Part shown: in pieces, positions 1,082-31,716 of the stretch
Numbering within the stretch: the first letter of the stretch is position 1
How the letters are laid out: each line of letters opens with the position of its first letter
Assembly (NCBI GenBank): GCA_032718475.1
Contig: JAUCBJ010002950.1
Coordinates: forward strand, 1 to 32,365
Direction: 5' to 3'
DNA from: Nemertoderma westbladi
Lineage: Eukaryota; Animalia; Xenacoelomorpha
DNA length: 32,365 nt
Translations under genes and position numbers: made by a program
Notes under the pieces: model-generated
The model's database searches: none
The model's input: only the letters and a program-made list of their open reading frames with translations
What the model was told of the DNA's origin: nothing

Positions 1082-2079
1082 TCACCACCCCGCATCGTGT
1101 TCTTTTAGGTATTGTGTGTTGAGTGTCGGTCTGTCTCTTTTAATATAGAATTTCTCCGCTAATTTACGTTCGGTCCAGTCTTTACATATGCGTTTAATTT
1201 CTACTGTAAATGGGTTGGTGTAATTAGTATTCCCCGGGTGTTTATCTACGTAGTGCTCCCCTATAGCTTCCTTTCTATTCCCTAGCCTCACGGAGTTCTT
1301 ATGTCTGTTAATCCTTTCGCAGAGGGGCCCTACCGTTTCTCCAATATAATTCTCTACGTGTTGGGTGCAAGCCGTGCACCTAATCTCATAGACAGCGTTC
1401 CTCACTGTACACCTTGTTACACCGTTGTCACACGTGTAACAGATAGTTCCGGCAGTAGACGGACACCTCTCGGGTTGAAGGCTGGATCTGATTAGAAGCT
1501 GGCGGAGCTTAGTGCCGCCAGGTGTACAAACCAACCTTGCCGAGCTTCCTATTGGGGAGTTCTTAATGGCGCGTTCCACACCCCGTTTCAATCCTTCGTT
1601 ATAAAATGGTAAAACTAATGGAACTTTATTATCCAGGGTTCTAGAAGTGGTATTCCGGTTATTATGTACTCTACCCATTTCTTCATTACGTATAAGTGCA
1701 TTAATTATATGTGGGGGGTAGTCGTTATTACTGAGCATATTATATATTTTATCCAAACTGCGCCCTCTGCCTTCTACTGTAGAGCTATTTCGTATAGCTC
1801 GTTTAACTGCGGAACGTGCGGTGGCTGTAATAATGGTACGTGGGTGGCTACTATTATAGTTAAGTATAATCCCAGCATTAGTGGGTTTAATGTATAATTC
1901 AAAATCAATAGAACCCTGGCTATTAACACTTGTAAGGACATCCAGAAACGGAAGGCTAGAGTAGGACTTTTCTAGTTTTCTAGTACCGGTATATATTTAA
2001 TGGTGGGGTGGCAACTATTCAAATATTCTAAAAATAGCACCAGTTCGTCCTCCCCATGCGGCCATATCGCCCATCCATC
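1082..2079 (-). pseudogene. 5'-truncated Penelope-like retroelement ORF: RT C-terminus plus GIY-YIG endonuclease
   Basis: Manual translation upstream of the 224-aa ORF gives DGWAIWPHGEDELVLFLEYLNSCHPTIKY / LPFLDV / YIKPTNAGIILNYNSSHP (PLE RT motifs from the second D of YxDD onward). The 224-aa ORF has NAVYEIRCTAC...YIGET...RINRH...E...PTLN, a GIY-YIG with the PLE Cys motif. Frameshift near 1968-1983. Confidence 0.92.
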
Positions 2080-2251: not shown

Positions 2252-2625
2252 TGTTCGCGCTTTCAGACCTTTAGCAGTTTAACCTGTCAATTTTAGGTGT
2301 CCTCTTGTTTATAAATCGACTTTAGCCTATAACAATTATTTAATGCACATGAAGTAACATTAGCCGAAGCCAGTCTATGCGCGATCATTAACCCACAGTT
2401 AAGGGAGACTGGACTCGGATGCTTTGACCTTATTGCGTTGCAGACCTACTGTATTATTCGATTGATTGTTACTATATAATCTCTGACAATATTATTCACT
2501 TTCGGGGAAATATTAACAGTTCCTTTAGGACGTGGCGCTTTAAGTATAAAACAGAGTTATGACTTATACTAAACACAACGAGATGGCTACTGATTTTCGT
2601 AAATAGCGCATTCTTTAGGAGATGC

Positions 2626-2631
2626 TTTATT
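2626..2631 (-). promoter_or_regulatory. Candidate polyadenylation signal AATAAA in the 3' LTR
   Basis: TTTATT on plus = AATAAA in element sense. The same site is at 17322-17327 in the 5' LTR. Confidence 0.45.
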
Positions 2632-3362
2632 ATCTGTCACACTGCTGCATACGATTTCACACTGCTGCACACTGATCTGCCGACCGTCACTGAATTTGAT
2701 CATATATAAGGAGGATAGCAACTGACACATGTAGGGATTATGAAATAGCATTTAATGCACACTAAAACCACTGTAATGTAAGTCGCAATTGCTACCGGTA
2801 ACCGGTCCCTCTAACCTTTAGTAATCAAGAAGATTGGGGGTTTTATGATTATTTATCGATATTCTCCAAATATAACAACATATCCATCAACATATAACCA
2901 TTAATAACAGACAGTAAACAGAAGTACAATAATGCGGTGATATTCAGCCAGTATCGGTAATACCGGTACCGCAGGTGCCAAGTGACCAGTTGTTATGGTT
3001 AGTTGCACAGTTGCATAGTGCAGCAGGGCCAGGTGTTATTCAGTCAGTCCAGTTGACAGGTGATGCAGTTGATGGCCAGATAATAGATTTACGTTCTTGT
3101 AATCAAAGCCGTCTAATGTTGGCCAAAGTCTGAAACTTCTAACACAGAAGTACAGAATAATTTCCAAGCAGTTGTTCTCGCTCAGAAAGGTAAACAAAGA
3201 CCGTAATGCATTGCGCGATTTCCTGTAGGTTTCTGTGCAATATAAAATTAAAATCGCTCTGATTGGCCGAGCGAGCCTGAACAAAGAAAGTTCCACATCG
3301 ACAGCAAATCAGCTGACAGATTTCGTCATCTGAACTACACTCTATTTAGAGTATTTGGCGTA

Positions 3363-3491
3363 TTGCGGCATAAAATGGCTTGTTATGTCCGCTAAAACAC
3401 CTACAGGGTACATTGCGGAGAAAATGGCTTGTTATGTCCGCTAAAACAACTAAACAGTTAATTGCGGAGAAAAATGACTGGTTATATCCGC
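3363..3491. repeat. About 50-bp tandem repeats (2 full + 1 partial) with internal dyad GCGG...CCGC at the U3 end of the LTR
   Basis: TTGCGG(C/A)...AAATG(G/A)CT(T/G)GTTAT(G/A)TCCGC starts at 3363, 3413 and 3462. Mirrored at 18051-18179. Confidence 0.85.
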
Positions 3492-3504
3492 AAAAGCTTT
3501 TACA

Positions 3505-3512
3505 CCGCTCCC
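3505..3512 (-). other. Short polypurine tract (GGGAGCGG) abutting the 3' LTR
   Basis: Minus strand reads ...CTGGGAGCGG|TGTAAAAGC, the expected position of the plus-strand primer. Confidence 0.6.
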
Positions 3513-3582
3513 AGAAAATGGGATTTAATTCTATAAAATATAAAAAATCACAGTTTCTAAAATATAAAAATACTCTAAACAG

Positions 3583-5136
3583 TTAGTCTTTCTTACGCGA
3601 ACGGCGTTTACGCGGTTTTTTGAGGCTAGCAAGAGTCCTTTTCTCTTTGGGGCGAGCCACTTTTCTAGGAGGGCTATAACTCCTAGGTGAAGGGTGCAAT
3701 ACAATTGCCTCAGAAGGTTTAGGGTTACGGTCAGTGTGTCCGCCGGTCGAGGTACCCGGTTGATCGGTATCAACCTCAGTGGAACGAGGTCGAACAACCT
3801 TGAGAGCGCGTTTTAAGACAGCAGCTCTTACTGGTCCCTGACGGGTCGTTTGCACGAGAGCAGTAGGTGGACCGTGTGTAGTGAGAAATTTCCTCAGTTT
3901 GATGGTTCTTTCCGACTCGCGTTCTCGGGCTCTGTTGAAATCGATATGCTTCTCCTCGAGCTGATTTTCCTCCGCTTGTCGTTGGAAGCATTCATCCAAA
4001 ACTCTTGCAGAGAGTAGGGTCGTCCAAGTTCGATATCTTCTTAGAGGTTCTGGATTTCCCGATCAAACTGAGATAAAGCTAATTCGTTTACCGCTTGGAC
4101 TTGCTGCTGCAATTTACGTTTCTCTAAACAATCGTAGGTTCCTTTTCCGATCTTTTGTCGAATAGTGTCTAACGCGTTTCGTTCAACTCTCTCCTCCACC
4201 TCGGTGACAGGTTGTATCGGGGTTAAACCGGGACGATTATACGGGTTGAACGGCGATATTAAATGTCCGCATCCCAATCCGGCTAGGTAGGATGGGCGAA
4301 TATCTAGGGAGCCCACAACCGGAGTGCCACCGACTAATTGTTCGGGTAACACCAGATCTTTGAACAGTGAGTACAGTTCAGGAGGATCAGTTATACTATT
4401 AGGATCAAGAGTCTGAGGTCTCACTAGGGAATGAGGAGGTCTGACCGAGTATTCCGGAACTCTGATCACTGATTATTTAAGGATCGTTTGAGTCGAGCGA
4501 GCGTAGGTGATACGTCGAACAAGTTTTGCTCGAAACTCCCATAAGTATAGCGAGTAAAAACTGTGTTTAGCGCAACGTCTCCGAGGATGCTTATGTCTTT
4601 CCGTATGTTGGTTGGGTCCAGGGCACTCATCGTAACAATACCAAAGACGCACGTCCCGTAGGGGAAACGCTGGTGATCTTTCTCCAGTTTTACAATGTCT
4701 CTCTCAAGAATTCCAAAGATACGTTGAAGTCACTGCGTTTATCCGGTTCTTTAACGTCTTCTCTTTCGAGTTAGTTTCGAATAGAATTTTCGTGTTCGAT
4801 TCTCAGTTTATTGTTCCGACTCCGCTGGGTATGATATTTAAATATGATCAATTCCCTTTCGGTGTCTACATCGTCCATATCGTGTAAATCGATAGGATGG
4901 CCAGTAGTAAAGAAGTCTATATACGTACCATTACGATGCGTATAGCGAGCGGTGAATTTTCTATAGTCCAATTCACGCATGAGCTGTTCCTTTGACATTG
5001 GCAGCTCGATATAACGGCCATCGTCCTCCGTAGTGGGTTGACTAGCGTCGCCGCGTATTAAACTATCAACAAACGCTTGCAATGGTAGGGTATATCGCTC
5101 CCTGATACCAAGATCATCTTCTATCAACTCAGTCAT
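3583..5136 (-). pseudogene. Degenerate accessory ORF(s) of unknown function between pol and the 3' LTR
   Basis: Consecutive sense-strand reading segments: 5136-4771, ~4728-4466 (LQRIFGILERDIVKLEKDHQRFPYGTCVFG...), 4469-4041 and ~4045-3583. They form a higher-GC island flanked by AT-rich DNA, start at ATG 5136 and end in the basic tail KKPRKRRSRKKD. No signal peptide or TM segment seen. Confidence 0.6.
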
Positions 5137-5945
5137 AGCTGCTATATGAGTTTATCGATATTATAATTAATTATAATTTAGACTAGCGGTCGTTGCTGCC
5201 TCCCCCTCAATGCCCCCGGACAGCGCAAGCTCCTCAGCGCTGATGTACTTTCATCGCTGTGTCTATCGCCAACGTAGTAGCTGCACAACGACAACAACAA
5301 CCAGCGCGAGTCACTCCACTGTCCGTCCCAAGGGCTTAGATTTACTTCAGGTTCTTACTGCAGGGGTAGGGCTACTTTCACAACTGCGACTCGCTACTGT
5401 AAACACACTTTAGTAGTAACATTCACCTATAAACACACAAATTCCACACAACTGTCACAAATTGTACACATTCGGGCCATTTGTCCGTTAGTCAAGTGCC
5501 TTCCAGAATGCCACGTTATTATTATGTATCCCTGGATACTAGCAGTGCGCTATTTATTCCGTATGCTATTCAATGGGGCAAGCTTTATATTGTTCTTTTA
5601 ACTCACATCTAATTCTAGCGTGGTGGTTGCTATGGTGACATTATGGAAAGCTAGCGGTAGAATTAGGGTAATTCTCATGCATACAGATCTGGGATGCTAT
5701 TTAATAGTAATTCTTTAATTGTCAATATTCCCCCTTATACATGATTTTATGAATTTTATCGGCTATTGACTATATATTGGAGATTCTCTCACACTAATAT
5801 ATTTAATAGGGCGAATCTCCGCTCCCATGATCTATTAATTAATGGAATTTTGGGAATGTTATAAATTGTATAAAATGATAATTTATCAAATTCATGAGAG
5901 GATATGAATTTAAAAATTTATTCCCGTAAATTTTATTATTTAATA

Positions 5946-6299
5946 TTAAAATAGGCACAATTTTATTCCAGAGCATGTCTGGGGACTGGGATCCTTGATT
6001 CTAGGAAATTTGTCCTTTTAAGAGTATCGGTGAGTACTACGATATCTTAATCGATTTTAAAGGATCTAAATTTTAACAGATTTTGATTTATAGATTTTCT
6101 TGGTTTACAAACTCCTTAGAGTTTATTTGTATGCATTTACTCTATTATAACATTTGTTTTAATAGATTTTATAAATATTAACTATGTAATATTTAAGATG
6201 GGCACCGATTTATTCCAGAACATGTCTGGGGACGTTAACCATTGATTCTAGAATTTTGTCTTTCAAGTATATCGGTGGGTGCCGCGATATCTTAATCGA
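5946..6299. repeat. Two diverged ~110-bp direct repeats, 247 bp apart, in the pol-accessory ORF spacer
   Basis: Shared blocks TTTATTCCAGA(G/A)CATGTCTGGGGAC, TTGATTCTAG, TATCGGTG and CGATATCTTAATCGA at 5946-6054 and 6193-6299. Confidence 0.85.
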
Positions 6300-6863
6300 C
6301 TAGAATTACAGATGGTCAAAGGGTTTAACAGATTTATTTTGCGTTGTACGCTACTGTTAAAGGGACATCACACTACTATATGTATTATTTAATATACGGT
6401 ATGAGAGCAATATTGCAAGAAGCAATGTCAGTGAGAAGAGGCAAGTCATTTCCAAGGTCTACCCAGAGCTTGGTTTAGCCGAGACACGAGGATCTGAACT
6501 TTGCATTCCTAATACTCTACTTACCAATAATACTTGAGTATAGTAGGAGCTTTATTGTACTTTAATAAGTACGGACATTTCATCTTACTGTAGTCACATA
6601 TTTATAATATGATACGGACAGTAAGGAAAGAGGAAAGAATTATTTCTCGCCGTTGCACTAAATATATATAATATAAGTAATTAAGTAATAAACGCGAATA
6701 TATATGGCACTAATTCTACTAAATAATCGCTAAAATAACATTCTACTAAATAAAAATTAAAGAAAACGATTATTATAAAATTACATAATAATACATACCT
6801 AAATATAAAAATAATAAAAAACGAATATAAAATAATATGGTCACACACCCACTCCAGACGCTG

Positions 6864-8405
6864 TTACGTTGGGGAGTCCCTAGATGTTTGTTGGATTAGG
6901 GAGGTGGTCGTGGGAAGAGTATCTTGCCTTCCATTGTTTCCGGACAGTTCTCTGTCTCTTTCCAGTAAACATAAACGACCAACTGGGCGATTGAGCTGCT
7001 GTGTTTCGAACACAATTCCAATTCCACAATTCCATCATCTGAGATATGAGTCTCGATGATACGACCTGTCTGCCACCGCTTACGTGGAAGATCTGATTCC
7101 ACAATAAGGACCATGTCTCCGGCACTGACGTTTTCTTGCTGCGCAAACCACTTGGTTCGAAGTTGTAGCGTAGGCAGATAATGTTTTTCGAAATGATCAG
7201 CGAAACGACGGGATAATAACTGCATAAGTTGCCAAGTTTGTCGGCAGTATTCATCTCCGTCCGTGATTTCCGATCGTGGGAGCATGGCTACAGGTTTCTT
7301 CAGTAGGAAGTGCACGGGTGTTAGCGCTTCCAGGGAATCGGGACTCGATGAGACTGGCATAAGCGGTCTTTCGTTAAGATAGGCGGCGATTTCTTCCATT
7401 AACGTCCGCAAAAGTTCGTCGGTGAGATACGCGCGGCACGGCACTATAAAGTGAAATGCGGTCTTCACGCTTCTTATTTATCTCTCCCAACTTCCTCCCC
7501 ACCAAGGGGCGTCGGCGGCGTTGAATGTCCAGCTAGACGCTGTTACTCTTAGCTGATCGTCCACCTGTCTTTGGTTCCAATATCTAACGTAAGCCTTGAT
7601 CTCATTATTGGCGCCAATGAAGTTCGTTCCCTTATCAGATCTCATCGTGTTGCTAGTTCCAAAGCGAGCGATCTGTCGGCGTAGACTCAGTATGAAGCTG
7701 TTGGTAGATAGATCGTTCACCATATCTAAATGGATCGCTCTACAAGTCATACAGACAAAGATGGCACACCATCGCTTGACTATAGTCCTGGCACGATATA
7801 CTTCAATAGGGCCAAATAAATCCACACCGGTATTAGTAAAGGGTGGTTCATAGAAGCTTACTCGTTCCCTAGGTAATTCTGCCTCTCGCTGTGTTAAAGG
7901 CCTACTGAATGCTTTCCTACAGGGTATACAGTTCCTAAGAACTTGGTTCAGAGCTCTACAGCTCGTAAGAACTCGTTCTCTACCAGCATGGTAAAGCTTA
8001 CTGTGAACATCTACAATCATCTTGATTTGTATTTCAAGATTTCTAATGAGTATGGGAAACTTAGTGTCAAAGGATAATGGAGCATTAGTTAGCCTCCCTC
8101 CAACGCGTATTAGCCCATCTATCATTGTGCTAGAGAAACGATCCCTTAAGCGCATCTGTGGATTTCTCAACAACAGGAAATACTTATCGGAATCTTCATA
8201 GCATTGCAGTAGTCTCAGTATCTGCTTATTGGTTTCTTCATGCTCCTGGTAACTGATCTTCTCCGTCAGAAACCTATCTGAGATTTTATATTTGGGAAGA
8301 TCTTTAATAGCATGGACCTGCACAGATGTCAGTGGAGCGGTATCACTAGCGATCTTCGTCCTGGAGTAGTGATAATGGAAGCATCGCTTGAAATACGCAA
8401 CGGCC
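6864..8405 (-). pseudogene. pol: BEL/Pao pol: integrase (HHCC Zn finger, DDE core, C-terminal domain), disrupted
   Basis: HSKLYHAG...CIPC, GVDLFGPI, SDKGTNF, WGGSWER, then an in-frame TAA at 7478-7480, then NERPL...LTPVHFL. A frameshift near 7020 restores the canonical RPVGRLCLLE, ending at TAA 6864-6866. Confidence 0.93.
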
Positions 8406-10533
8406 TTACAAGCCGATTCCAGGAGCTATAGTGATGTATCGCTCTCTGTAGGAGAGGTGAGAGTCCCTGCGAAACGTCTGGTGTTCCAGATTTCCAGTCT
8501 CTCTCTCTGATTTCCACAACAGACTTATTTGTGGTGGGGGAGTTTAGATCCACAGCGTCGTCTCCGGAAATATGTAGTACAGACAGATCTATCACGGGTT
8601 TAAATAACTTCGATTTACTCGTCTGGGTTTTAGGTTTGACTTTCTCCGCTCCCTTGGCTTGTCTAATCTCAGCCGTGGTAAGATGAGGAGGCCATTCATC
8701 TTCTTCTTTACTTAGGAAGTCGGGTCCACCTAACCAGTCTGGAGTGTCTACCAGTTCTTGAGGAGTTGCTCCTCTGGAGGCGATGTCGGCTGGATTAATC
8801 GTCCCAGGGCAATGTCTCCATTGATCTACACTAGTGCGACTAAGTATAATGGCTACTCTGTTGGTAACGAAGACGCTGAACTGACAGACTTCATTGGTTA
8901 TATACTCCAAAACGAGTAAAGCATCAGTCCAATAGACAGTTTTCTCCAGTGGATAGTCGATCTGTTCTGTGACGTTCCGGCCGATGGCTGTAGCGTATAG
9001 AGCCGCCTTTAACTCCGCTCGAGGAACTCGTAGTTTGTTGTTTATCAAGGCCTTAGAGGTAACCAAGGCAACTTTAATTCCATCCGGAGTTTCAACTCTC
9101 AGGTAGGCTACTATACCTATTCCCATATCGCTGGCGTCTCCAAACACATGGAGTTGAAAGGAATACGTGGGGAGAACATGACCAAAATATGAACGAGAAA
9201 TCGTAAAGTTCTCGATGGATGGTAGAGAATCTTCCCATTTCATCCACTTCTTTAGTAGTTCTCCCTTAAGTGGATCGTCCCACGAGTGGTTTTCAAGCCA
9301 CATTTGTTGAACTAAACTCCGAGAAACCAATATAACTGGGCTAATAAATCCCAATGGATCGAAATAAGTGCTCAGGATACTTACACAAATCCGTTTAGTT
9401 CGAACTGGATTATCTCGCTGTTTTAGCTGGAAAAACAGGATATCTCTCTCCGTGTCCCATTTCAAACCAAGCGTCTTGGTTTCTGGAAGATCGTCCTTGA
9501 TTAGGTCCAGGTCTTTAACTCCTCGGTCTTCTACCGGGATCGATTCCAGAAACTCACGGGAGTTACTGGTGAATTTAGTTAGTCGAAATCCACCACGTTT
9601 CAAAAACTCTACCGTTCCCTTGGCAACATCAATGGCTTCTTCCACCGATGGGAGGGACTTTAAATTATCGTCCATGTATATATCCCGTTTGATGTTGTCG
9701 ATAACCGCTTTAGAGAAGGCGTCTCGGTTGTCATCAGCAGTGGTGCGCACTACTGAACAGGCATTCGAGGGGCTCGAGATGATTCCGAAAGCCTGGATGG
9801 TCATCCAGTACTCCACAGGTTTTTGGCTGAGGTCTCCTTCAGGCCACCACAGAAATCGCAGGCTGTCTCGATCCCTATCCAGCGCCTTAACTTGTAAGAA
9901 CATGCCTTCTATATCTGAGGCGAAGGCGATCGAATATTGCCGTAATCTTAAGAGTATTCCCAACAAGGATTGGAGTAATTTGGGTCCCGGCAACAACTCC
10001 GAGTTAAGGGATTGGCCCATGTAAAGGGCGGAGCCGTCAAATACTACCCGAACTTCATTGGGTTTACCGGGTTTGGGAACGTAATGATGGGTTAAATAAT
10101 ACGTTATCTTAGTTATGGGTATTTCTTCCGGTACTCGCTCCGCATATCCCTTATCGATGAATTTCTTCAGCTGTGTCTTGTACATCTCTTTAGCTGAAGC
10201 ATTTGCCGTAAGGCGTCGATGTAGTTGCGCGATTCTTTTCTCCGCCAAGGGTCGGTTATTTATAAAATTAGGTTCTCGCTTTCGGAATGGCAGACCAATC
10301 TCATACCTCCCTTGATCACTAAGGAAACGTGTAGTCGTTGCCTGGATCTGCTTGGCTCTTTCCTCCTCGACTGATAGTGCTTTGTCATAGGAATTAGGCT
10401 CTACAGCTTCTTGAGTAAAGAATCGTACGGCGTGTTCGTTGCGAATCTTAGCGTTATGTCGATCTATCACCTCATTTAGCTCATCGTCATAGTTGAGTTG
10501 TCCGCCATGATGGACGAGATGGCAAAGGTGCAC
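8329..10533 (-). pseudogene. pol: BEL/Pao pol: reverse transcriptase and RNase H
   Basis: YYLTHHYV, RVVFDGS, SLNSELLPGP, DIEGMFLQV, FGIISSP, YMDDNL, KTLGLKWD, FDPLG; RNase H LHVFGDAS/PRAEL/WTDA/NPAD. A 1-nt frameshift near 8405 (RLVR/AVAYFKRCF) joins it to the integrase frame. Confidence 0.96.
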
Positions 10534-11466
10534 TTGGTTTCTCCAAGCTTCACTTTCAGTGAGGAGGTCTATCGTATTTTCCTCGTCAAATAGTTGGGTA
10601 ATATCGTCGTTATCTGAGGGGTATGGTGTTCCCTCAGGTGTGATTTCTCCCTCACTGATTTATTCTTCCCATTCACTCACTTGGTGGATTTGTTCAGTGG
10701 GTAATCTTTCCATGAGCGTTCTACGGGAAGGTCCAGTGAAGTACCAACCTACTCTAGTTCTTCCCGCATAGGTTTGCAATGGTTGCGGTCGAGCAGGTCG
10801 TTTCTCTAATGTCTCAAGCGCCTCATGCGCATTTTAGCCGATTAATATTTGCACCCCTGGGTAGCCAGTGTTGAATCTAGGGATATTATGTTGCTGGGTA
10901 AAATCTTCTTCATCCCAGTTGTAAGGTTCTACTTGGCTGGTAGCAAAGTTCTTTATCGCCACCATTTTTACTGACCTTATGCTGTGTTCTCCTAGTTCGT
11001 CTTGGGGAGTGGACAACGCGCCTACATAGTAGTCTGTAGCTACTGTAGATTTCCAAACCTGCATAATTCCTGAAAGGTTCAACTTAGTTCGGAACTTGGG
11101 TTGTCCTGCAAAGATGTCTTCAGCTAGTTCTTTATCGATGAAAGTTCCTGTACTGCCGGAGTCCAGGAGTGCGTTGACTATAAAACTCTTACTTAATCCA
11201 TGGACTCTTAGCTGAACTACGGGGAATTCCCGGATTCCAACGTTGGAAGTTGGTGCTTTCCAAGATGGTTGTCGGTCAGGAATAACCGGGTGCGCTTCGT
11301 TATCGGTTTCAGTCTCATACGTAAGCGCTCGATACACCGCGGTGTTTATCAAATAACAGGATTCGTTTTCGTCTGAGAATTTGTCCATATAGAATCCTTC
11401 CATCTCAGAACTTTGGTCAGTGTCGTTCACATCACTGAATTGGACATGTAGTTCGGACTCACTCAC
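10534..11466 (-). pseudogene. pol: BEL/Pao aspartic protease and linker, with two in-frame stops
   Basis: NALLDSGSTGTFI active site; VQILIG then TAA at 10834-10836; in frame AGRTRVGWYFTGP; second TAA near 10660; continues in frame into RT. Confidence 0.92.
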
Positions 11467-14400
11467 TTACTCGGGCTGTTTCTTTCAAATTCGGTGTGCA
11501 ACAAGATATGATGTTTCGCGCCGCACTTAGCACACCTCGCATCGGAGTAACAGGTACGCCGTTGGTGTCCTTGTCTGAGACAATTATAACACAACCGCTT
11601 ATCCCACATGACATCACGTCAATCTTTTAGGGATTTCTTTAAGAATTCATCACACACACTTAAACGGTGGGGCCTGTCGCACAATGCACATTTTGGTTTG
11701 ATGTTACGTACTTTACCTTGGGTAATGTTGTGCACACTCGTTCTTTCCTCGGGCTTTCTTCCATGAACTCTCTTAGGAGACGTAGGAGGAGTTTTTGTTA
11801 CCTGTTCTCTCCTGTCACTGGTTCGAGACTTAAATTTACTTACGTCTTTAGGTGCTTTGTTGACATAGTAAGATCTTTCGGTGTCTTTCCCGTTGTTCTC
11901 CTCTTGAGAGGTCTGGCTTTCGCTGTCGTCTGTATAACACACTGGTGTTACCTTTCTCCTAGAAACGGGTTTTTCACTTACCTTATTTTCCGGTGTCTTC
12001 TCTCTGGACTGCTTTAGGAGCTGTAATTTTACCTCTCCATCTAAGAATGACATGAGGTCAGCCATGGTAGGGTCTCTTCGTTGTTGTTCCATCATATATA
12101 GAACTCTTTTGTCCCAACGAGTACCTACTCCACCCTTTGGCAAGGTAGATGCTACAGCTCCAATAACCATAGAACTCTGATACTCATGAGACTTACCTAG
12201 CCAATCTAATTGTCTACAAATCTCCTGGATCTCATCGGAAAATTCTATAATCCCGCTGCTAAGAAACTTTCGTGGCGCTACCAATTTCGGTAACAAGTAC
12301 CTAGCTATGTTATTCCTATTACCATACCTGATGTTTAGTGTATCCCAGACTTGTCTTAATCCATCTGGATGTCCAATAAACTTTAACGCCATTAACTTGG
12401 GAGATCCTTCCAAGCACTCGATGAGGAATCTAAGTTTCTCTCCGTTAGATAGCACAGAGTTCTGTATGTTATCTTTATAATATTCATTAAAAGGTAACCA
12501 TTTCATCTCATCTCCATTGAACTTGACGATCTCTCCCACCGTTACCGCTTGACGGGCTTCGGTTCTAGCCATTTGACGCGTAAAACTTTCTTGGGCCATC
12601 GTATTATTTAATATCGAGTTATCAGTATATAAATTTCTAGGATTATGATCAGGTCTATATGGAATATCATTATCAACAGGTTTATCATTACCCTTAATAG
12701 GGTTTACTATAGGAGTTTCTACTTCACTAGCAGTATAGATGTGTGTAGGCTCCACACCTTGCGCATGAAATACTTCAGACCTAACAGGTTGACACATTGT
12801 TACAGGGGGTGGTGTTATACCCCTTTGTATATTTACTAATTTATCGCGTTCTAATGCGATACTCTGCTGCACTTCTTGCAGTTCTAACCTACCCTCTCTT
12901 ACTGTTCCCTTTAACTGCTGCACAGTCCCTTCCATTTCTCGGACGTGCTGGGAGGAACGTAGGCGCTGTTCCTCCAATTGCCCAAGCTGGAGATCCATCC
13001 CCCGCCGTCCCTCATCCACCCACTCGACCGCCGAAGCGGGAGCTGCCAATATAGTAGCGGGTAGACGAGGGACGACGGGCGATAAATCGTTGATGTCTCG
13101 CTCGGCGTCCAAGACTGGGACTGTTTCTGTGGCTATTCTATTGGGCACAGGTAATTTAGTACTGTGCAAAGGGAATTTAGAGTTAGGTTCTGGAAGTACA
13201 GGTGTCTCTATCACCGAAGGGGTGGCTTCGAGAACAGGCCTAATTATTTCAGGCTCATCTACTATAGTAGGGAGTCTTTCTACTCTAATAATTTGGTCTG
13301 TGGGTTCTGTACTACCTAAGTCTGCACTAGCTAGTTGTCTTCTCACAGCTGGGGGCAAATTAGGCAATTTCTGATGGTGAGGTGTTCTTCTACGTCTGCT
13401 GGAACGAGATCTATTTCCTCCGCCTTCAGGATCTGTTGTATCGCCTTCATCAGATGATGTAAATCCCTGTCTCTTGGGAGTAGATCGACTTATCATCTGC
13501 ATCTGCTTATCTGTTCTTTGTTTATTGAAGTAGTCTTGCTTCTCTTGAAGATTTTCCAACTCTAGTTGGACTGTCTCTTCAGATGCCCTCCGTTCTGCTG
13601 CTGCCACTGCCTCTGCCGCCTTTCTTTCCGCTTCTGCCGCTGCTACCTTTCTTTCCGCTTCGGCCTCTGCCGCTGCCATTTTTCTTTCCGCTTCTGCCGC
13701 CTTTCTTTCCGCTTCTGCCGCTGCAGCTGCCGCTTTTCTTTCAGCTTCTGCCGCTTTTCTTTCCGCTTCTGCCGCTGCAGCTGCCGCTTTTCTTTCAGCC
13801 TCTGCCGCTGCAGCTGCCGCTGCCGCTTTTCTTTCAACTTCTGCTGCGGCCGCTGCTGCTGCCTTTCTGTCTTCTATCCGTTTTTTCTTTAATTGTTCTT
13901 CCTGTTCCCTAGCGATGAGGATACTTTCATCAAATTTAGCTTGTTCTACGGCTAACATTTCTGCATCTAATGCGTCTAACACAAATTTAGCTCCCTCACT
14001 AGAAGGATGAAGTCCAGATAGTCGTCTCCTTAGCTCTTCGTCGCCTATAAATCGTTGATAGTCCGACAGATAGATGTCAATGGCGTCCTTCTTCTGAGGT
14101 TTCTCTAATGTAACCTCGCTTTCCACCTGAGAAAAGGTAGCGTCTGTTGATTCTCCGTGGGTCGAGCGCTCAGTTAGCTGAAATTTCCATTGGGTCGTTC
14201 CTTGAACTTTGAGACTCACCCGTTGGAACCAAGTCTTTACGGCAACTTGCAACGACGTGTCTTGGCTTCTTTTCGAAGCTTCCTCAAAGGCCGATAGGAT
14301 TAGTCTGATTCTTAGGATACGTTCTCGAACTTGATAAAGCAGCTCTCCCTGCTCTTGGGGTCCTTGGGGTTGTTGAAACAGTTGTTCCTCTAATCGCTCC

Positions 14401-15041
14401 AAAGAGCTGAAGAACCCCTGTACATATCCTGCTGCCGACCTCTTCCACACAGCTGGATCTCTAGTGCCCTTCACCACTCCCATCCTGTATAAGTCCTCCC
14501 AGGCAGCTTCCGATAATTTAAACGGGAGTCCGGGTCCGGGGAAGTTCCATTGCGTCTCGACAATAGACTTCAGTTCCTCCATTGTGTATCCCGCATAACT
14601 GTCCTTGGTCGATCGCTTACTTCTCGCCCAATCGATTTGATGTTCCTCCACCGCAATCAATACTCTAGTGAGTACGGCTTCAGGAAGAATGAGAAGTGGA
14701 TCCGAATAAACTACTTCTGCTATCTTTGCTCCGCGCTCGGGTGTCAACTCTACAGTATCGGAACTACTGGAGCTATCGGGCCGCTGAGAAATAAGTTCTC
14801 GGCTCGGGTGTTGCTGCTGTTTAACAGCTGCCTCTTGGTCCCGCTTGACTTGAGCCCGAGTGCCTATGATAGACCTACGGTGCTTTACTAGCCTAGGGTC
14901 TGATACTACTACTGAAGGGATGACTTTTCTTACAGTAGGAGGGGACTTGAACTTTGGTCTCAAATGTTCGGTACTCCTGTCGGAGTCGCAGAAGGTTGTT
15001 TCTAGGAGACTATCTGACAGAGTTTGCTTTGTGTAAGCCAT
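11463..15041 (-). pseudogene. gag: BEL/Pao gag with long N-terminal extension, capsid-like (DUF1759-type) region and three Zn knuckles
   Basis: 1140-aa ORF with KFNGDEMKWLPF...EKLRFLIECLEG...LNIRYG. CALCDRPHRLSVC precedes a premature TGA (11619-11621); in frame after it come CYNCLRQGHQRRTC and CAKCGAKHHILLH. Frame change to protease at ~11466. Confidence 0.92.
13595..13868 (-). repeat. Coding tandem repeat (AAAAEAERK)n inside gag
   Basis: Repeated GCAGCGGCAGAAGCGGAAAGAAA(A/G) variants, about 9 ERK units; alpha-helical/coiled-coil composition. Confidence 0.9.
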
Positions 15042-15177
15042 GTTTGATTGTACAGTTGAATGCCTACTACTATAACAACAGTTAAAGCAAATCTAGTAAT
15101 TCAGTATCAACTGTTAGCCTAGTAATTAATTACCGATATCATTACTCAATGTAACGTGATATATATATAATATATTA

Positions 15178-15431
15178 GAATACCGGTATACACTTATAGT
15201 ATATATATAAGTATTATTACAGACTAGGGTTTGTCACAGAATACCGGTATATAATTTCAGCATAAATATATATAAATATATAATAAGCCTACCGTGAATA
15301 CCGGTATGCAGCTCACACTTATAGTATATATAAGTATAATTATAGACTAGAATTAATTACAGAATACTGGTATATAATTTCAGCATAAATTTATATAAAT
15401 AAATATAATAAGCCTACTATAAATACCGGTA
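15178..15431. repeat. About 120-bp tandem duplication in the 5' leader, punctuated by ATACCGGTA roughly every 60 bp
   Basis: CACTTATAGTATATA...AGACTAG...CAGAATAC(C/T)GGTATATAATTTCAGCATAAAT...AAGCCTAC occurs twice (15178-15296, 15296-15420). Confidence 0.85.
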
Positions 15432-16936
15432 ATGTCAATTATTTTAGAATAACTGAATTTCTGAATTTTAGGATTACTTTCCTTTACTTTATTACTGTTA
15501 TTAAGCAGTAGACCAACTGATATTAAGACCTAATTGATGTATGACAGGCCTACTATTTTATAAATCGGTTTGATTTGATTTATAATATATATATACCCTT
15601 ATAATGGGTTTTTGACAATATTTGAAATAAATGTTATTATTTCTGGTAAGGAGTCACTACACAGAAGCTGTACGCTCTCAGTGAAGTGCTACTTGTTGGA
15701 CACTAAAACAAATAATTCTACTTGACTAAGTTACTTATTACTACAAATTACGTACAATTACTGGGTGAGATTACAATCTCTAAATAAACACAAAAATTAC
15801 ACGTACAAATTTTAGGGTAATCTTACAGGAAATCTACAAACCAGCCTAACAAGGGTTAGAATTTCTGGTTATTACAAACGGAAAGGAAACTACGGTATTT
15901 GAAAATAATTAAGCAGTAGTAAATAAATTGCGTTGTCCAGATAAGAAAATACCACCGTCTGACGACTTATAGTCTTTAGCTGTACAGCTCTATAAGTACT
16001 ACGTTATGTACCCGGAGTGTTCTTACCTAGAAGTTAATTACCGCAGCCAACCAGAGCTAACGTGCCTATTAACCACTTTACAACACAAATATACCGCCTA
16101 CACACTAATTACCTTCGGAAAGTATTGTACACTAAACCCTAAATTAGGTACAAGTACTTATACAACAAATAACCAGCAGTTAAAAATACTTGTACAGCCA
16201 AAAGAACCACGGTATCTGCTGGAGTGACTAGAGCATAAAATCACCAGTCTTCACCTACGCCAAGCAGCCCTGATGTAGTACCGGGGTTAATTTAACTATA
16301 ACGGTATGTATAACAAGCACAATTACTGTAGGAATAAACTTGGGGAGTTATGTATGTTGCGAATACTCGCATATACTCTGAATAATAAATATTACGCTAC
16401 CCGTGCAGACTACACAAACAAAATACAAACCAAACGCTGGCAGACTACTATCAAGCCTAAATAAACTACAGTATATGCAGACTCCGAAATGGTTAGTTAG
16501 TATGCGTTCTAACTGAGTAGTATGACTTATTCTTTCGGGGGGGATTTACCTTACAGCACTGGATGCCCCCACCTTCCTAACTAGTACTTTATCGGACATA
16601 CACTCTACACACACTGCAATCTCTTCAGACTTAACGACAGTCAGACAACAATCCAGCCTACAAATTATTTATACAATCTGAGCAGGCTTACACGCCTTCT
16701 GCTCAATATTACACTTACAAATAAATAAAACTGACAGAAATAAGTAAAATCCCAATAAAAAACCAGGGCTGCAGTCCCTGATTAAATTTCAAGACCTACC
16801 GGTATATAATTATCAAAATCGAATAATACTGCTGTACCTGTAAGTACCGGTTCGGGTAGTCGGGCAGTCAGGCCTACAGCTTACCGGTCGACCGGTACGT
16901 TTGACTTTATTGCCTACGGTGTAATAAAGAATCTGA

Positions 16937-16947
16937 AAATCTATTAT
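16937..16947 (-). other. Non-tRNA primer-binding site candidate (ATAATAGATTT), complementary to LTR 17768-17778
   Basis: First 11 nt after the 5' LTR in element sense. No TGG start. Perfect reverse complement of element-sense AAATCTATTAT in both LTRs (17768-17778, 3080-3090). Confidence 0.65.
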
Positions 16948-18192
16948 TGTTCGCGCTTTCAGACCTTTAGCAGTTTAACCTGCCAATTTTAGGTGTCCTC
17001 TTGTTTATAAATCGACTTTAGCCTATAACAATTATTTAATGCACATGAAGTAACATTAGCCGAAGCCAGTCTATGCGCGATCATTCACCCACAGTTAAGG
17101 GAGACTGGATTCGGATGCTTTGACCTTATTGCGTTGCAGACCTACTGTATTATCCGATTGATTGTTACTATATAATCTCTGACAATATTATTCACTTTCG
17201 GGGAAATATTAACAGTTCCTTTAGGACGTGGCGCTTTAAGTATAAAACAGAGTCATGACTTATACTAAACACAACGAGATGGCTACTGATTTTCGTAAAT
17301 AGTGTATTCTTTAGGAGATGCTTTATTATCTGTCACACTGCTGCATACGATTTCACACTGCTGCACACTGATCTGCCGACCGTCACTGAATTTGATCATA
17401 TATAAGGAGGATAGCAACTGACACATGTAGGGATTATGAAATAGCATTTAATGCACACTAAAACCTCTGTAATGTAAGTCGCAATTGCTACCGGTAACCG
17501 GTCCCTCTAACCTTTAGTCATCAAGAAGATTGGGGGTTTTATGATTATTTATCGATATTCTCCAAATATAACAACATATCCATCAACATATAACCATTAA
17601 TAACAGACAGTAAACAGAAGTACAATAATGCGGTGATATTCAGCCAGTATCGGTAATACCGGTACCGCAGGTGCCAAGTGACCAGTTGTTATGGTTAGTT
17701 GCACAGTGCAGCAGGGCCAGGTGTTATTCAGTCAGTCCAGTTGACAGGTGATGCAGTTGATGGCCAGATAATAGATTTACGTTCTTGTAATCAAAGCCGT
17801 CTAATGTTGGCCAAAGTCTGAAACTTCTAACACAGAAGTACAGAATAATTTCCAAGCAGTTGTTCTCGCTCAGAAAGGTAAACAAAGACCGTAATGCATT
17901 GCGCGATTTCCTGTAGGTTTCTGTGCAATATAAAATGAAAATCGCTCTGATTGGCCGAGCGAGCCTGAACAAAGAAAGTTCCACATCGACAGCAAATCAG
18001 CTGACAGATTTCGTCATCTGAACTACACTCTATTTAGAGTATTTGGCGTATTGCGGCATAAAATGGCTTGTTATGTCCGCTAAAACACCTACAAGGTACA
18101 TTGCGGAGAAAATGGCTTGTTATGTCCGCTAAAACAACTAAACAGTTCTTTGCGGAGAAAAATGACTGGTTATATCCGCAAAAGCTTTTACA
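16948..18192 (-). repeat. 5' LTR (1245 bp)
   Basis: Direct repeat of 2252-3504, upstream of gag in element sense. Contains a CCAAT box (GGCCAATCAG, minus strand, ~17947-17956). Confidence 0.97.
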
Positions 18193-18197
18193 ATAGT
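18193..18197. repeat. Right 5-bp target-site duplication (ATAGT)
   Basis: Identical to 2247-2251. Confidence 0.95.
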
Positions 18198-18204
18198 TGA
18201 TTAC

Positions 18205-18238
18205 TGCTTGATAAAGGCCTGTTGGCTGAAATATAGCA
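18205..18238 (+). ncRNA. Minimal type I hammerhead ribozyme motif (U3:A8 variant), inverted copy
   Basis: TGC-TTGATAA-AGGCC-TGTT-GGCT-GAAA-TATA-GCA. GAAAUAUA parallels the GAAACGUC of minimal PLE hammerheads, with a palindromic stem III. Reverse complement of the 2150-2188 copy apart from a 5-nt duplication. Confidence 0.72.
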
Positions 18239-18646
18239 TTATTATTATTATAAACCGATTACGTGATATAGACCACATTCAACTTATATTACTATGATTG
18301 CTCCCGTAACCTGGGCGATGAATTATCTTAGAAGTTTACACACCTTTTTGCTATGGGATAGTGTTAGCCAATGAGGTGAGCTTATTTAAGGAACAACCAA
18401 TTAATTAGAAGCCCAGAAATATTTCCATAGGTAGAAACGATACCCCAATTGGAAATATGCCACCGGTTCTGCAATAAATCTGTATTCTTCATTTTTTATC
18501 CTCTGTATTATTTTTTTTCTTGGTCGACATTCATTTTATTTTATTTATGGTGAGCATCATACCAATACACTGGCTACCCAGACACTACAGTAACTCTATT
18601 TCACCAATCAACGATTGCGATCATAGATTCCCAGTCCCACCACCTC

Positions 18647-27792: not shown

Positions 27793-28635
27793 AATATAAA
27801 TAAATAAAAATACTAAAAGATAATAATATTAGATTTCCAATAATTTTTATCCTAGAAGTGCTATAATATAGATTAGAGTGTTCAATTAATTCTCCGCAAA
27901 TAATGATGTGACAGGATATGACGGGCGAGTCAAAACTGGGAGCCATCAATGAACCGTTATAATTATACTATCTCAGTTTTCCAAATCTCTCTGTGTGTGT
28001 CAGTATGTCTGTCCGAAATCATAATATAGTCGTAAATAAGCATAACATGCAATAGTACTCTATGATTACTGTTCGATGAGATGCTTGCAGTATTCCTGTA
28101 AATTATAATGTAAATTTTCCTCATCTTGATATATAAAGTTTACATTACGTCATTACAGACTACTGAATATTATACACATAAAGCTCTAATTGTGCTATGA
28201 GGCAAACCAAATTTGAAAGGTGCTATATTTTGCAATATAGGTAACAACACTCTCATTGGAGGTCAAGATACTCATCTCCTACAGCCGCCACACCTGTATG
28301 AGAAGGCTGCGGGAGCCAGACGATACACGTCGCGATTATCTAGTATCCAACGAGGCGTAGTCGACTTGCGACTAGCGCACCGAGGCGATGCTGCACACGG
28401 AGTAGCACAGGACGAGACATTGGCGCGGCCGAGGTACAGTCTACCCCACAATCTCAGTGGTGTTACCCTTAAAGGGAACAACCTCATGGGACGGGAAAGG
28501 ACAATGAGTACAGTCTCCATGGTGAAGACGTGGCGGGGATCAGAAATGATAGACGAAAGTACATTGAGTCTTTATATTCAGGCTGAGAAGGAAACAAAGG
28601 AAGGCAATCAATGCTGCACCCTACCTGCCTGCATA

Positions 28636-29907
28636 ATGGGTATACAAGTAAGTTTCATTCCCAAACGATTGGGTATACAAGTAAGTTTAATTCCCAAACG
28701 ATTGGGTATACAAGTAAGTTTCATTCCCAAACGATTGGGTATACAGGTAAGTTTCCTTCCCAAACAAATGGGTATACAAGTAAGCTTCATTGCCAAACAA
28801 ATGGGTCTACAAGTAAGCCTCATTGCCAAAAGATTGGGTATACAAGTAAGTTTCTATCCCCAACGAATGGGTATACAAGTAAGCTTCATTGCAAAACGAA
28901 TGGGTATACAAGTAAGCTTCATTCCCAAACGATTGGGTATACAAGTAAGTTTCTTTCCCAAACGAATGGGTATACAAGTAAGTTTCATTCCCAAACGATT
29001 GGGTATACAGGTAAGTTTCCTTCCCAAACAAATGGGTATACAAGTAAGCTTCATTGCCAAACAAATGGGTCTACAAGTAAGCCTCATTGCCAAAAGATTG
29101 GGTATACAAGTAAGTTTCTATCCCCAACGAATGGGTATACAAGTAAGCTTCATTGCAAAACGAATGGGTATACAAGTAAGCTTCATTGCAAAACGAATGG
29201 GTATACAAGTAAGCTTCATTGCCAAACGATTGGGTTTACAAGTAAGTTTCATTCCCAAACGATTGGGTATACAAGTAAGTTTCTTTCCCAAACGATTGGG
29301 TATACAAGTAAGCTTCATTGCCAAACGATTGGGTATACAAGTAAGTTTCATTCCCAAACGATTGGGTATACAGGTAAGTTTCCTTCCCAAACAAATGGGT
29401 CTACAAGTAAGCTTCATTGCCAAACGATTGGGTATACAAGTAAGTTTCATTCCCAAACGATTGGGTATACAAGTAAGCTTCATTGCCAAACGATTGGGTA
29501 TACAAGTAAGTTTCATTCCCAAACGATTGGGTATACAAGTAAGCTTCATTGCCAAACGAATGGGTATACAAGTAAGCTTCATTGCAAAACGAATGGGTAT
29601 ACAAGTAAGCTTCATTGCCAAACGATTGGGTATACAAGTAAGTTTCATTCCCAAACGATTGGGTATACAGGTAAGTTTCCTTCCCAAACAAATGGGTATA
29701 CAAGTAAGCTTCATTGCCAAACGAATGGGTATACAAGTACGTTTCATTCCCAAACGAATGGGTATACAAGTAAGCTTCATTGCCAAACGAATGGGTCTAC
29801 AAGTAAGCCTCATTGCCAAAAGATTGGGTATACAAGTAAGTTTCTATCCCCAACGAATGGGTATACAAGTAAGCTTCATTGTCAAACGATTAGGTATGTA
29901 TACAAGT
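28636..29907. repeat. 33-bp minisatellite, about 38 copies (consensus ~ATGGGTATACAAGTAAG(C/T)TTCATT(G/C)CCAAACGA)
   Basis: Uninterrupted 33-bp period. The variant unit TTTCTATCCCCAACGA recurs at ~28851, ~29115 and ~29841. Confidence 0.97.
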
Positions 29908-30632
29908 CATCGAAACGAAATCGAAACTGAAAACTTTTTTTTTTTCAACGAGAATGTTTAGATGCAACTTTATAACTCATTTTCAAATAAAATACATCTC
30001 AAATATTTTTGAGTAGTAATGATTTTTCGGCGGATGATTGTAAGTTTAGCACCACATTTTTAAATCAATGGTTTGTGTCCTCTTCTTTCTAGCGTTATAC
30101 GGGCTTCTTAGGGGCCCGCGTCCAATGGAATAAATGAGAATGGCACTTGACTTTGCAAACTTCTATTTTTCAGCTGTGAGTGGAAAATTTGGTGCTTGGA
30201 CAAACATTGTACGTCAAAAATTCGACTACCAAAGAGTTTTCATAAATATTTGTAGATTTCAGAGCGGTGGAGGGTGAAAATGACTCCCACCAGTATTTTT
30301 ACAAAATGATAGCCCGGTATTAAAAGTTAAGGTATTGTATTCTACCCTTGAACGATTAGATTATTTGCATACCACTCCGACCTCCTCACATTAGATGTAA
30401 TGATTCTGGGCCCCTCAAACTATCTGTGGTATAACATCATGTTTGTAACTAATTCTATATTCTAGCTTATGTTTACAAAATAATTTATCACATGTCAATC
30501 ATTACAATCAATGACGGATAATTATTAAATTGATGTGGTATATGGTTGTGATATAGATAGATTTTGTTCGTCATCAACCAACAACCCAAATGCGCCTGAA
30601 TGATTATGGATTGTAGCTGAAAAAACCTATTA

Positions 30633-31100
30633 TTACAAGTAATCAAATGGTGTCATTTCAGAAGTTGAGAAGTAATCGAATTCTAAATTTAGTGGCCCCT
30701 TAGTGAGTGGCCCTTTCGTCGGAGGTCCTTTAGTGGGTCGTGTAGTTGTGCCCAATGTTGCTGGTCCAAGGGTTGGTGGGGTTAATGTTTCAACAACATG
30801 GAACGCATAGATTGAAGCTGTTATTGATTGAAAGATGATTACCGACGCCACGAGGACGAGGAACCACAACTTATCGGAACCAAGTGCACCACTTTTGAAC
30901 CACCATATCATAACTAATCCCACAATCCCACTGATAATCATATTCGTCGCCACCAGGTACATGTAGTTGTTGCCACTTCCTTTTATTAAGCAAAATATGA
31001 TTGACAGGCCGACCAGAGCAGCAGTTAGAGCCCCGTAGAGTTTGGAAGCAAAGAGAAGTTTGGGAGAGATCTCGTGATAAATTGGACCTGACACATCCAT
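30633..31100 (-). CDS. TMEM243-like: TMEM243 (DUF2678)-like three-TM membrane protein with Pro/Thr-rich C-terminal tail
   Basis: Intact 155-aa ORF in AT-rich Kozak-like context with three hydrophobic segments. PIYHEISPK...GALTAALV...IWWFKSGAL...ITASIYAFH resembles, from memory, TMEM243 PLFGETSAK...GSLTSLL...IYWYRQGDL...CANLYFH. Confidence 0.72.
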   Translation of the reverse strand: MDVSGPIYHEISPKLLFASKLYGALTAALVGLSIIFCLIKGSGNNYMYLVATNMIISGIVGLVMIWWFKSGALGSDKLWFLVLVASVIIFQSITASIYAFHVVETLTPPTLGPATLGTTTRPTKGPPTKGPLTKGPLNLEFDYFSTSEMTPFDYL

Positions 31101-31716
31101 AATAATAACAGCCTTAAATACTTTTTTTCAACTAAAGACTTAAATTCTATCTACACTAGAAAAGCATATGTTAAATGAAGTTTGAACAAGATAATTTTAT
31201 GTTTGTCAATTAAAGTTAAAAACATACTTTCAAATAACCATAATATTTATAGGCCTCTCCAGAATATTTCGCAAGCTATACTGGCTGGTTATGTGGTTAA
31301 GTTGCACAATGCATATTTTATTAAGATTTCTATATCTATATCTAACATTACATACATATTGAATTGCGTTAAAATGTAGGCTTGAAGTAGCAAATAAATG
31401 TTGTAAATGGAGGCTATTAGCAATAATTAGCAAACAATAATAATTATATACAGTATTTTTTTTTGTCTGTTTAATATTAGTTGACCGCAGTCAGCCGATC
31501 AGTAGGTTTAGCACTACACAGACGGGCGGCTTTCTCAACGGCTTGAGCCCGAAAATGACAATGGGATGATTTTCTAAAGGAAGAGTGAGCGTGGGTAATG
31601 CAATGAAATGAAACGTAGCAACAACCACTGGGAAGCAGCACTTGAAGTTTACCCCAATCTTTTTTCTGCTTCTTAACCTCCTGACATTTGTGTTTCAGTC
31701 CCGTTATCACATCTTA

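Follow-up and report, generated by a model that had tools for sequence, protein, structure and literature searches.

The retrotransposon in this window (the whole 32,365-nucleotide stretch of Nemertoderma westbladi DNA analysed here) raises the question of what occupies the env position, between the end of pol and the 3′ LTR, in an element that appears to have no envelope gene. The element is a complete LTR retrotransposon of 15,941 bp (15.9 kb) that lies on the minus strand and runs from 18192 to 2252. Its 5′ LTR (16948–18192, 1245 bp) and 3′ LTR (2252–3504, 1253 bp), both of the form TG...CA, are 98.3% identical (13 mismatches and 1 gap over 1254 columns), and both flanks carry the 5-bp target-site duplication ATAGT (2247–2251 on the left, 18193–18197 on the right). 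Between the LTRs, again on the minus strand, there is a 1.9-kb 5′ leader (15042–16947), which is non-coding by the tiling test described below, a gag ORF (11619–15041) that contains DUF1759, is unbroken across 3420 nt and has one C-x2-C-x3-H-x4-C knuckle ahead of its stop, and a broken pol (6864–11618) comprising protease, RT, RNase H/Peptidase_A17 and integrase/DUF5641. The final pol frame stops at 6864, leaving 3.36 kb to the 3′ LTR, which is itself adjoined by a short purine-rich, PPT-like tract (3505–3514, minus strand). The first part of this interval is an AT-rich, non-coding spacer of 1.7 kb (5137–6863, minus strand) and the remainder contains a sense-strand coding island of ~1.55 kb (5136–3583), termed here the extra ORF.

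The element is a BEL/Pao (Belpaoviridae) LTR retrotransposon. This assignment follows from the minus-strand Pfam matches to DUF1759 (3.4e-11), Peptidase_A17 (7e-37) and DUF5641 (5.2e-18), together with the occurrence of Peptidase_A17 (PF05380) in all 120 pol relatives listed; the gag then PR-RT-RH-IN order is accompanied by Pfam families specific to BEL/Pao. Among the best matches listed, the nearest database pol proteins are 35–43% identical, and the named relatives are from cnidarians, fishes, molluscs and further animals, most of them marine. The ICTV profile of the Belpaoviridae gives a genome of 4.2–10 kb and LTRs of 0.2–1.2 kb (PMC8742986), a typical range and not a strict criterion, which is exceeded here by the 15,941-bp length and the 1.25-kb LTRs; in the accessible part of their survey, de la Chaux and Wagner accepted BEL/Pao elements of up to 15 kb (PMC3118150). 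The excess reflects the 1.9-kb leader, the long gag and the 3.36 kb that separate the pol stop from the 3′ LTR. A PBS (tRNA-Arg or tRNA-Gly in Belpaoviridae) was not recognised, no TGG occurring within 47 nt downstream of the 5′ LTR. The gag is unusually long (~1140 aa) and includes an Ala/Glu/Arg/Lys-rich tandem repeat at 13593–13863 (minus strand), while duplicated units occur in the leader (15190–15431, 123 bp), in the spacer (5927–6054 and 6172–6299, ~245 bp apart) and in both LTRs (49 bp; 3362–3495).

Elsewhere in the window, the insertion site is a small repeat, of which the flanks 2086–2196 and 18197–18262 match in inverted orientation. A fragment at 1082–1996 (minus strand) holds a GIY-YIG domain (Pfam 1.3e-05) and we take it to be Penelope-like. 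A 33-bp tandem array of ~38 units at 28505–29960 is open in two plus-strand frames (586 and 447 aa), and a 164-aa open frame at 30633–31127 (minus strand) has several hydrophobic segments, with all Pfam matches sub-threshold.

The island at 5136–3583 is coding. The minimum number of breaks required to tile 5136–3586 with open sense frames is 4, compared with 14.4±2.1 in shuffles that preserve dinucleotide content (minimum 8), and the corresponding values are 14 for the antisense strand, 22 for the spacer and 20 for the 5′ leader. When a codon model was trained on gag and RT of the same element, the best-path score for the island was 87.6 against a shuffle maximum of 19.1; equal-size pol windows scored 54, 77 and 128 (the last belonging to the training set), and the spacer and leader, at around -60, were at chance. 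It could be argued that these are chance open frames in a GC-richer non-coding island, as the region had been picked for its openness, which somewhat flatters the P values, no homologue is evident and one of its four pieces is ambiguous. It should be emphasized, however, that none of 1000 shuffles reached so few breaks and none of 300 so high a codon score, that the antisense strand is at chance level and that the open frames are also those favoured by the codon model. This explanation is thus largely refuted, and we regard it as extremely improbable.

A frame-likelihood test selected the open frame in every piece of the island, with margins of 83, 18, 68 and 39 bits for pieces 1 to 4, respectively; in calibration it was right for 25 of 26 held-out gag/pol chunks, and non-coding chunks gave 1–31 bits (n=13). 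Piece 1 (4702–5136, minus strand, as are all four) begins with the ATG at 5136, is acidic and has an in-frame stop at 4771–4773. Piece 2 (4469–4701) is the least certain, and its frame is provisional because the 18-bit margin falls within the non-coding range and a second frame is open from 4703 to 4476. These ~230 nt are therefore open in two frames, the disfavoured one being rich in Cys, His and Arg; this Cys/His-rich alternative is disfavoured by 18–21 bits, which is short of exclusion. In piece 3 (3990–4468) a Pro-rich half is followed by a predicted long helix (~4202–4047) and an in-frame stop (4041–4043), and piece 4 (3583–3989) consists of a charged helix and a low-complexity linker before the stop at 3583–3585. 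Five breaks fit better than four by the same test, namely the two in-frame stops and frame changes near 4700, 4470 and 3990. Pieces 1 and 4 lie in one frame, and the ORF counted from the ATG at 5136 is 517 codons long. The description of the locus in an earlier, sequence-only reading is upheld in these respects: pol ends near 6864, more than 3 kb before the 3′ LTR; four abutting, stop-free sense segments, with the C-terminus it quoted, are located as it described; a protein of ~500 aa broken by stops and frameshifts is recovered as 517 codons with 2 stops and 3 frame changes; and the acidic N-terminus, Pro-rich centre and later helical, charged character are seen in pieces 1, 3 and 4.

Is the extra ORF peculiar to this copy? 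All or part of the stretch is present in five of the seven public runs listed, which derive from four studies and two organisms. In each of the four runs compared (X1, X3, X4 and X5, the last possibly from RNA), the best of which may be the window's own source, the extra ORF is covered by assembled contigs at ~84% identity, mostly without gaps. The suggestion that the segment is an insertion unique to this copy is overturned by its presence in all four of these runs and in both organisms. Regional comparisons were based on 32 contig pieces, the longest of ~55,900, which overlap and are not independent; two that straddle a border were left out of the region classes. The extra ORF accounts for 18 of the 32, at 15.8% difference from the window, with 12 of the 18 gap-free and 2.7 gaps per 100 differences. 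The equivalent figures are five of six gap-free and 0.5 gaps for pol, and two of six and 8.1 gaps for the spacer. One gap-free piece in the extra ORF extends for 421 nt and contains 83 differences. Judged from these few, overlapping pieces, the gap pattern is that of a coding region. Codon positions 1, 2 and 3 hold 4, 7 and 8, respectively, of the 19 listed places of difference that fall within the extra ORF, with no clear third-position excess; the listed places number 40 of 1248 in all and are mostly sites where this copy departs from nearly all others. Three of the listed pieces run across a frame change; judged by net length, one of these copies would be in a single frame there and the other two would not. 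No unbroken copy of the extra ORF was seen among the listed contig pieces, none of which spans the whole ORF. Some DNA contigs skip 53–209 bases inside it (3737–3944, 4526–4580 and 4899–5109); deletion derivatives thus exist as DNA, and joints at those places do not reflect splicing.

This copy is dead: pol and the extra ORF are broken and gag is whole. There are 0 breaks in the 3420 nt of gag versus ~13 in the 6.3 kb of pol and extra ORF (Poisson P ~0.001), ~8 of them in pol if the stop that terminates gag is included. It may be that this lineage is non-autonomous, a derivative that keeps only gag. As the LTRs differ by only ~1%, most of the breaks are likely to predate the insertion of this copy; assembly error is an unlikely source of the breaks, the LTRs differing by a single gap over 1254 columns.

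The five breaks within 1.55 kb could suggest that the extra ORF is a captured host or viral gene, encoding for example a nucleoprotein or another basic-tailed protein, that hitch-hikes in the element, is decaying in all copies and has no present role. The deletions within the ORF in several contigs, and the failure to see an unbroken copy among the listed pieces, would fit such a history, and the blank database searches (see below) weigh little against a capture as the host lineage is absent from databases (nearest pol 35–43%). Break densities in the extra ORF and in this copy's pol, however, do not differ (P=0.20), codon usage matches gag-pol, and long gap-free pieces at 15–20% divergence, which occur in the second organism too, would be hard to keep without selection. 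We therefore view a functionless passenger as rather unlikely. The best reading is that the extra ORF is a real, family-wide, non-envelope gene that is dead in this copy.

With respect to the product, the extra ORF is not env-like. The highest Kyte-Doolittle value for a 19-mer is 1.06 over the four pieces and 0.12 in piece 4, indicating that there is no TM anchor. No signal peptide was found, the N-terminus being acidic and the best 9-residue hydropathy in the first 40 residues being 1.46 on a simple scale, and the four pieces contain 3 Cys and 2 N-glycosylation words. The hydropathy maximum and the Cys count agree with the earlier statement that signal peptide, Cys pattern and TM anchor are lacking, and the basic C-terminal tail that had been reported is likewise unusual by count. 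This putative NLS-like tail (3586–3675, minus strand) has 15 K/R in its last 30 residues and is preceded by two SP sites; 12 K/R fall in 20 tail residues, a value attained in 4 of 2000 residue shuffles, with gag and RT-RH having only 7. The frequency of NES-like and K[KR]x[KR] motifs is not above that of shuffles. A long helix is predicted at residues 91–142 of piece 3 (block pLDDT 51–79). In the structural modelling and fold search that the sequence-only reading had proposed, the two AlphaFold2 models, made without an alignment, are of low confidence (pLDDT 37.8 and 50.5), and the Foldseek search with the first of them, which returned no match at E<=0.001, is meaningless at so low a pLDDT.

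It is possible to envisage a structural protein in this position, either a second capsid- or nucleocapsid-like product or an atypical env remnant, that packages or moves the element. The env position would suit such a role, as would the one RLKR and one RKRR word and the SP- and Arg/Lys-rich tail, which resembles the nucleic-acid-binding tails of viral core proteins, and an ATG-started, hydrophobic ORF of 30 codons in the spacer (6357–6449, minus strand) could in principle supply a signal peptide. This small ORF, however, lies within T-rich DNA, in which hydrophobic translations arise in many frames, and is probably a product of that composition. The lack of a transmembrane segment, the low numbers of Cys and N-glycosylation words, the absence of similarity to the element's own gag and the lack of any Pfam or PDB match also argue against a structural role, which we consider very unlikely. 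Separately, a contig from the second organism keeps 6196–6535, which includes the small ORF, at ~97% identity.

Searches of sequence databases did not identify relatives of the extra ORF. No Pfam family was matched at E<=1 by any of the four pieces, and there were no matches to PDB sequences under E 0.8 (two queries) or to PHROGs under E 0.1 (five queries). In a word-seeded protein search, 0 of 36 candidates were retained for piece 1 against longer proteins and 0 of 19 for piece 3 against proteins of near length. The sole HMMER match of piece 3, among 1.84 billion representatives, was a bacterial repeat protein in which no single stretch passes (BLAST, 25 bits per repeat), and the best ESM Atlas result for piece 1, a bacterial DUF4919 (0.84, recognition 1628), is at chance level; both were rejected. 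Pattern matches in metagenome contigs came to nothing for piece 3 (0 of 598) and for pol (0 of 44), as did those in viral contigs for piece 1 (0 of 8), and phage records yielded none for piece 4. An internal duplication of gag or pol was not apparent either, tblastn giving no match under E 0.2 in the rest of the window and blastp none to 121 stored proteins. In the database and structure searches, neither a homologue nor a fold linked the protein to a function. As the nearest pol proteins are only 35–43% identical, the lineage is unrepresented in databases, and the blank says little about the age or spread of the gene.

What, then, might the protein do? We give about an even chance to the view that the extra ORF is what remains of a third gene, now broken, in a BEL/Pao family of high copy number, and that unbroken it would encode a soluble nuclear protein of ~515 residues that helps the RNA of the element to be made or exported. 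Unbroken copies probably exist or existed recently. Provided that they do, it is highly probable that the extra ORF would have its own message, spliced from the 5′ LTR or transcribed from an internal promoter, because it lies 1.7 kb behind the pol stop and follows many upstream ATGs and stops. The two acceptor-like 10-mers to which the sequence-only reading drew attention (5436–5427 and 5406–5397, minus strand) do exist, but they do not stand out, neither ranking among the 15 AG sites that are richest in pyrimidines in the spacer; 7 GT[AG]AG donor-like words lie between 17600 and 15042, in part of the 5′ LTR and the leader. The basic, SP-flanked tail would quite plausibly be a phospho-tunable NLS or a nucleic-acid-binding arm, with the long helix mediating oligomerisation, and the protein would enter the nucleus via the tail and act on nucleic acid of the element itself. 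Any element that relies on splicing also has to get its unspliced RNA out of the nucleus, and the single most likely job, proposed tentatively and by analogy, would be a Rev/CERV-like one in which intron-containing genomic RNA leaves the nucleus. With both pol and the third gene lost, this copy would need other copies to provide them, and the retention of gag alongside these losses is in keeping with a third-gene product that works when provided in trans. The fuller proposal, in which a deep-branching, very large and abundant BEL/Pao lineage carries in the env slot an independently evolved, Rev/CERV-like nuclear factor of a new family that is supplied in trans to gag-only copies, seems to us doubtful.

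The same accessory gene might instead act in anti-silencing or transcriptional control, its product binding either the DNA of the element (repeats of the LTR or spacer) or a host silencing factor. Parallels are provided by the VANC proteins of plants and by viral suppressors of silencing. Such a role would be consistent with the combination of a basic tail and an acidic N-terminal piece, with the very high representation of the family among public runs and with the duplicated units of the LTR, leader and spacer, which could be binding sites, and nuclear aORF proteins have been described in plant elements in the accessible text of PMC7264820. The favoured frames, however, contain no DNA-binding or zinc motif and have no homologue, and we judge this role to be unlikely. 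Of the candidate jobs, we would place RNA export first, followed by anti-silencing or transcriptional control, a decaying passenger and, last, a structural role.

If an accessory protein that assists the element's RNA is indeed encoded here, a soluble, basic-tailed third gene would represent a complex-retrovirus-like accessory factor in BEL/Pao. It would also provide a handle on how a 16-kb element with a long leader and spacer brings its unspliced RNA past retention in the nucleus or silencing by the host and becomes so abundant. The locus also cautions against calling every post-pol ORF of BEL/Pao 'env'. The value of the finding is capped by this being a dead copy, by an unbroken gene being unseen among the listed pieces and by orphan extra ORFs being common in other LTR groups. 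Overall, the sequence-only reading is partly supported: the ORF is coding, non-env and family-wide, and it has a basic tail.

The extra ORFs of Tas and Cer7 are env-like. Other env-like ORFs of BEL/Pao include the F-type of roo and, in mosquito elements, a Chuviridae gB-like glycoprotein, according to the accessible parts of the relevant reports (PMC13524379, PMC8742986 and PMC3118150). The ORF described here resembles these in its superfamily, sense orientation, location between pol and the 3′ LTR and similar size, but lacks a signal peptide, TM anchor or Cys scaffold and ends in a basic, hydrophilic C-terminus. We found no non-env third gene for BEL/Pao in the open-access literature, although Repbase, GyDB entries, subscription journals and supplements could hold one, and the accessible text of a mollusc survey (PMC6238403) has nothing on extra ORFs. 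The earlier description of the ORF as undescribed thus stands for the open-access literature and the protein searches, but not in a broader sense: post-pol ORFs that are not env, some of them nuclear, are already known in Gypsy elements and other LTR superfamilies, and it is for BEL/Pao that none was found described.

Bdelloid rotifer LTR elements carry non-envelope ORF3s of GDSL, DEDDy, coiled-coil and TM types, which are typically separate spliced units (PMC5408684, available in part). Like these, the extra ORF is a family-specific sense ORF after pol that is not env, and some of the bdelloid examples are coiled-coil only; the ORF3s, however, belong to Juno, Vesta, TelKA and Mag, and those that are enzymatic match Pfam, in contrast to the extra ORF. 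Gene23 of Grande and the aORFs of Retand similarly occupy a long pol-to-LTR region as orphan ORFs, and the additional-ORF product of Grande is nuclear and has its own promoter, but in the accessible text they are antisense and from plant Ty3/gypsy elements (PMC7264820), whereas the ORF here is sense and in BEL/Pao. The sORF1 of the Drosophila MDG1 group, as presented in the available portion of the preprint (bioRxiv 10.1101/2025.03.14.642691), is a nuclear accessory protein of an env-less LTR element, as we infer the present protein to be, but it is ~110 aa long, lies upstream of gag and belongs to Metaviridae. The final comparison is with CERV of the C. elegans Ty3/gypsy element Cer1, a 517-aa nuclear protein made from a spliced mRNA and needed for export of the genomic RNA, according to the part of the report accessible (PMC10309623). 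CERV has exons that overlap gag, a Cys loop and a G-protein-like domain, in contrast with an ORF that follows pol in a BEL/Pao element, and the equal length (517) is a coincidence and not evidence. The likeness is one of functional analogy only: as with CERV, the extra ORF would encode an accessory protein of an animal LTR element with a helical oligomerising part (here predicted), a candidate basic NLS and no homology outside its own lineage.
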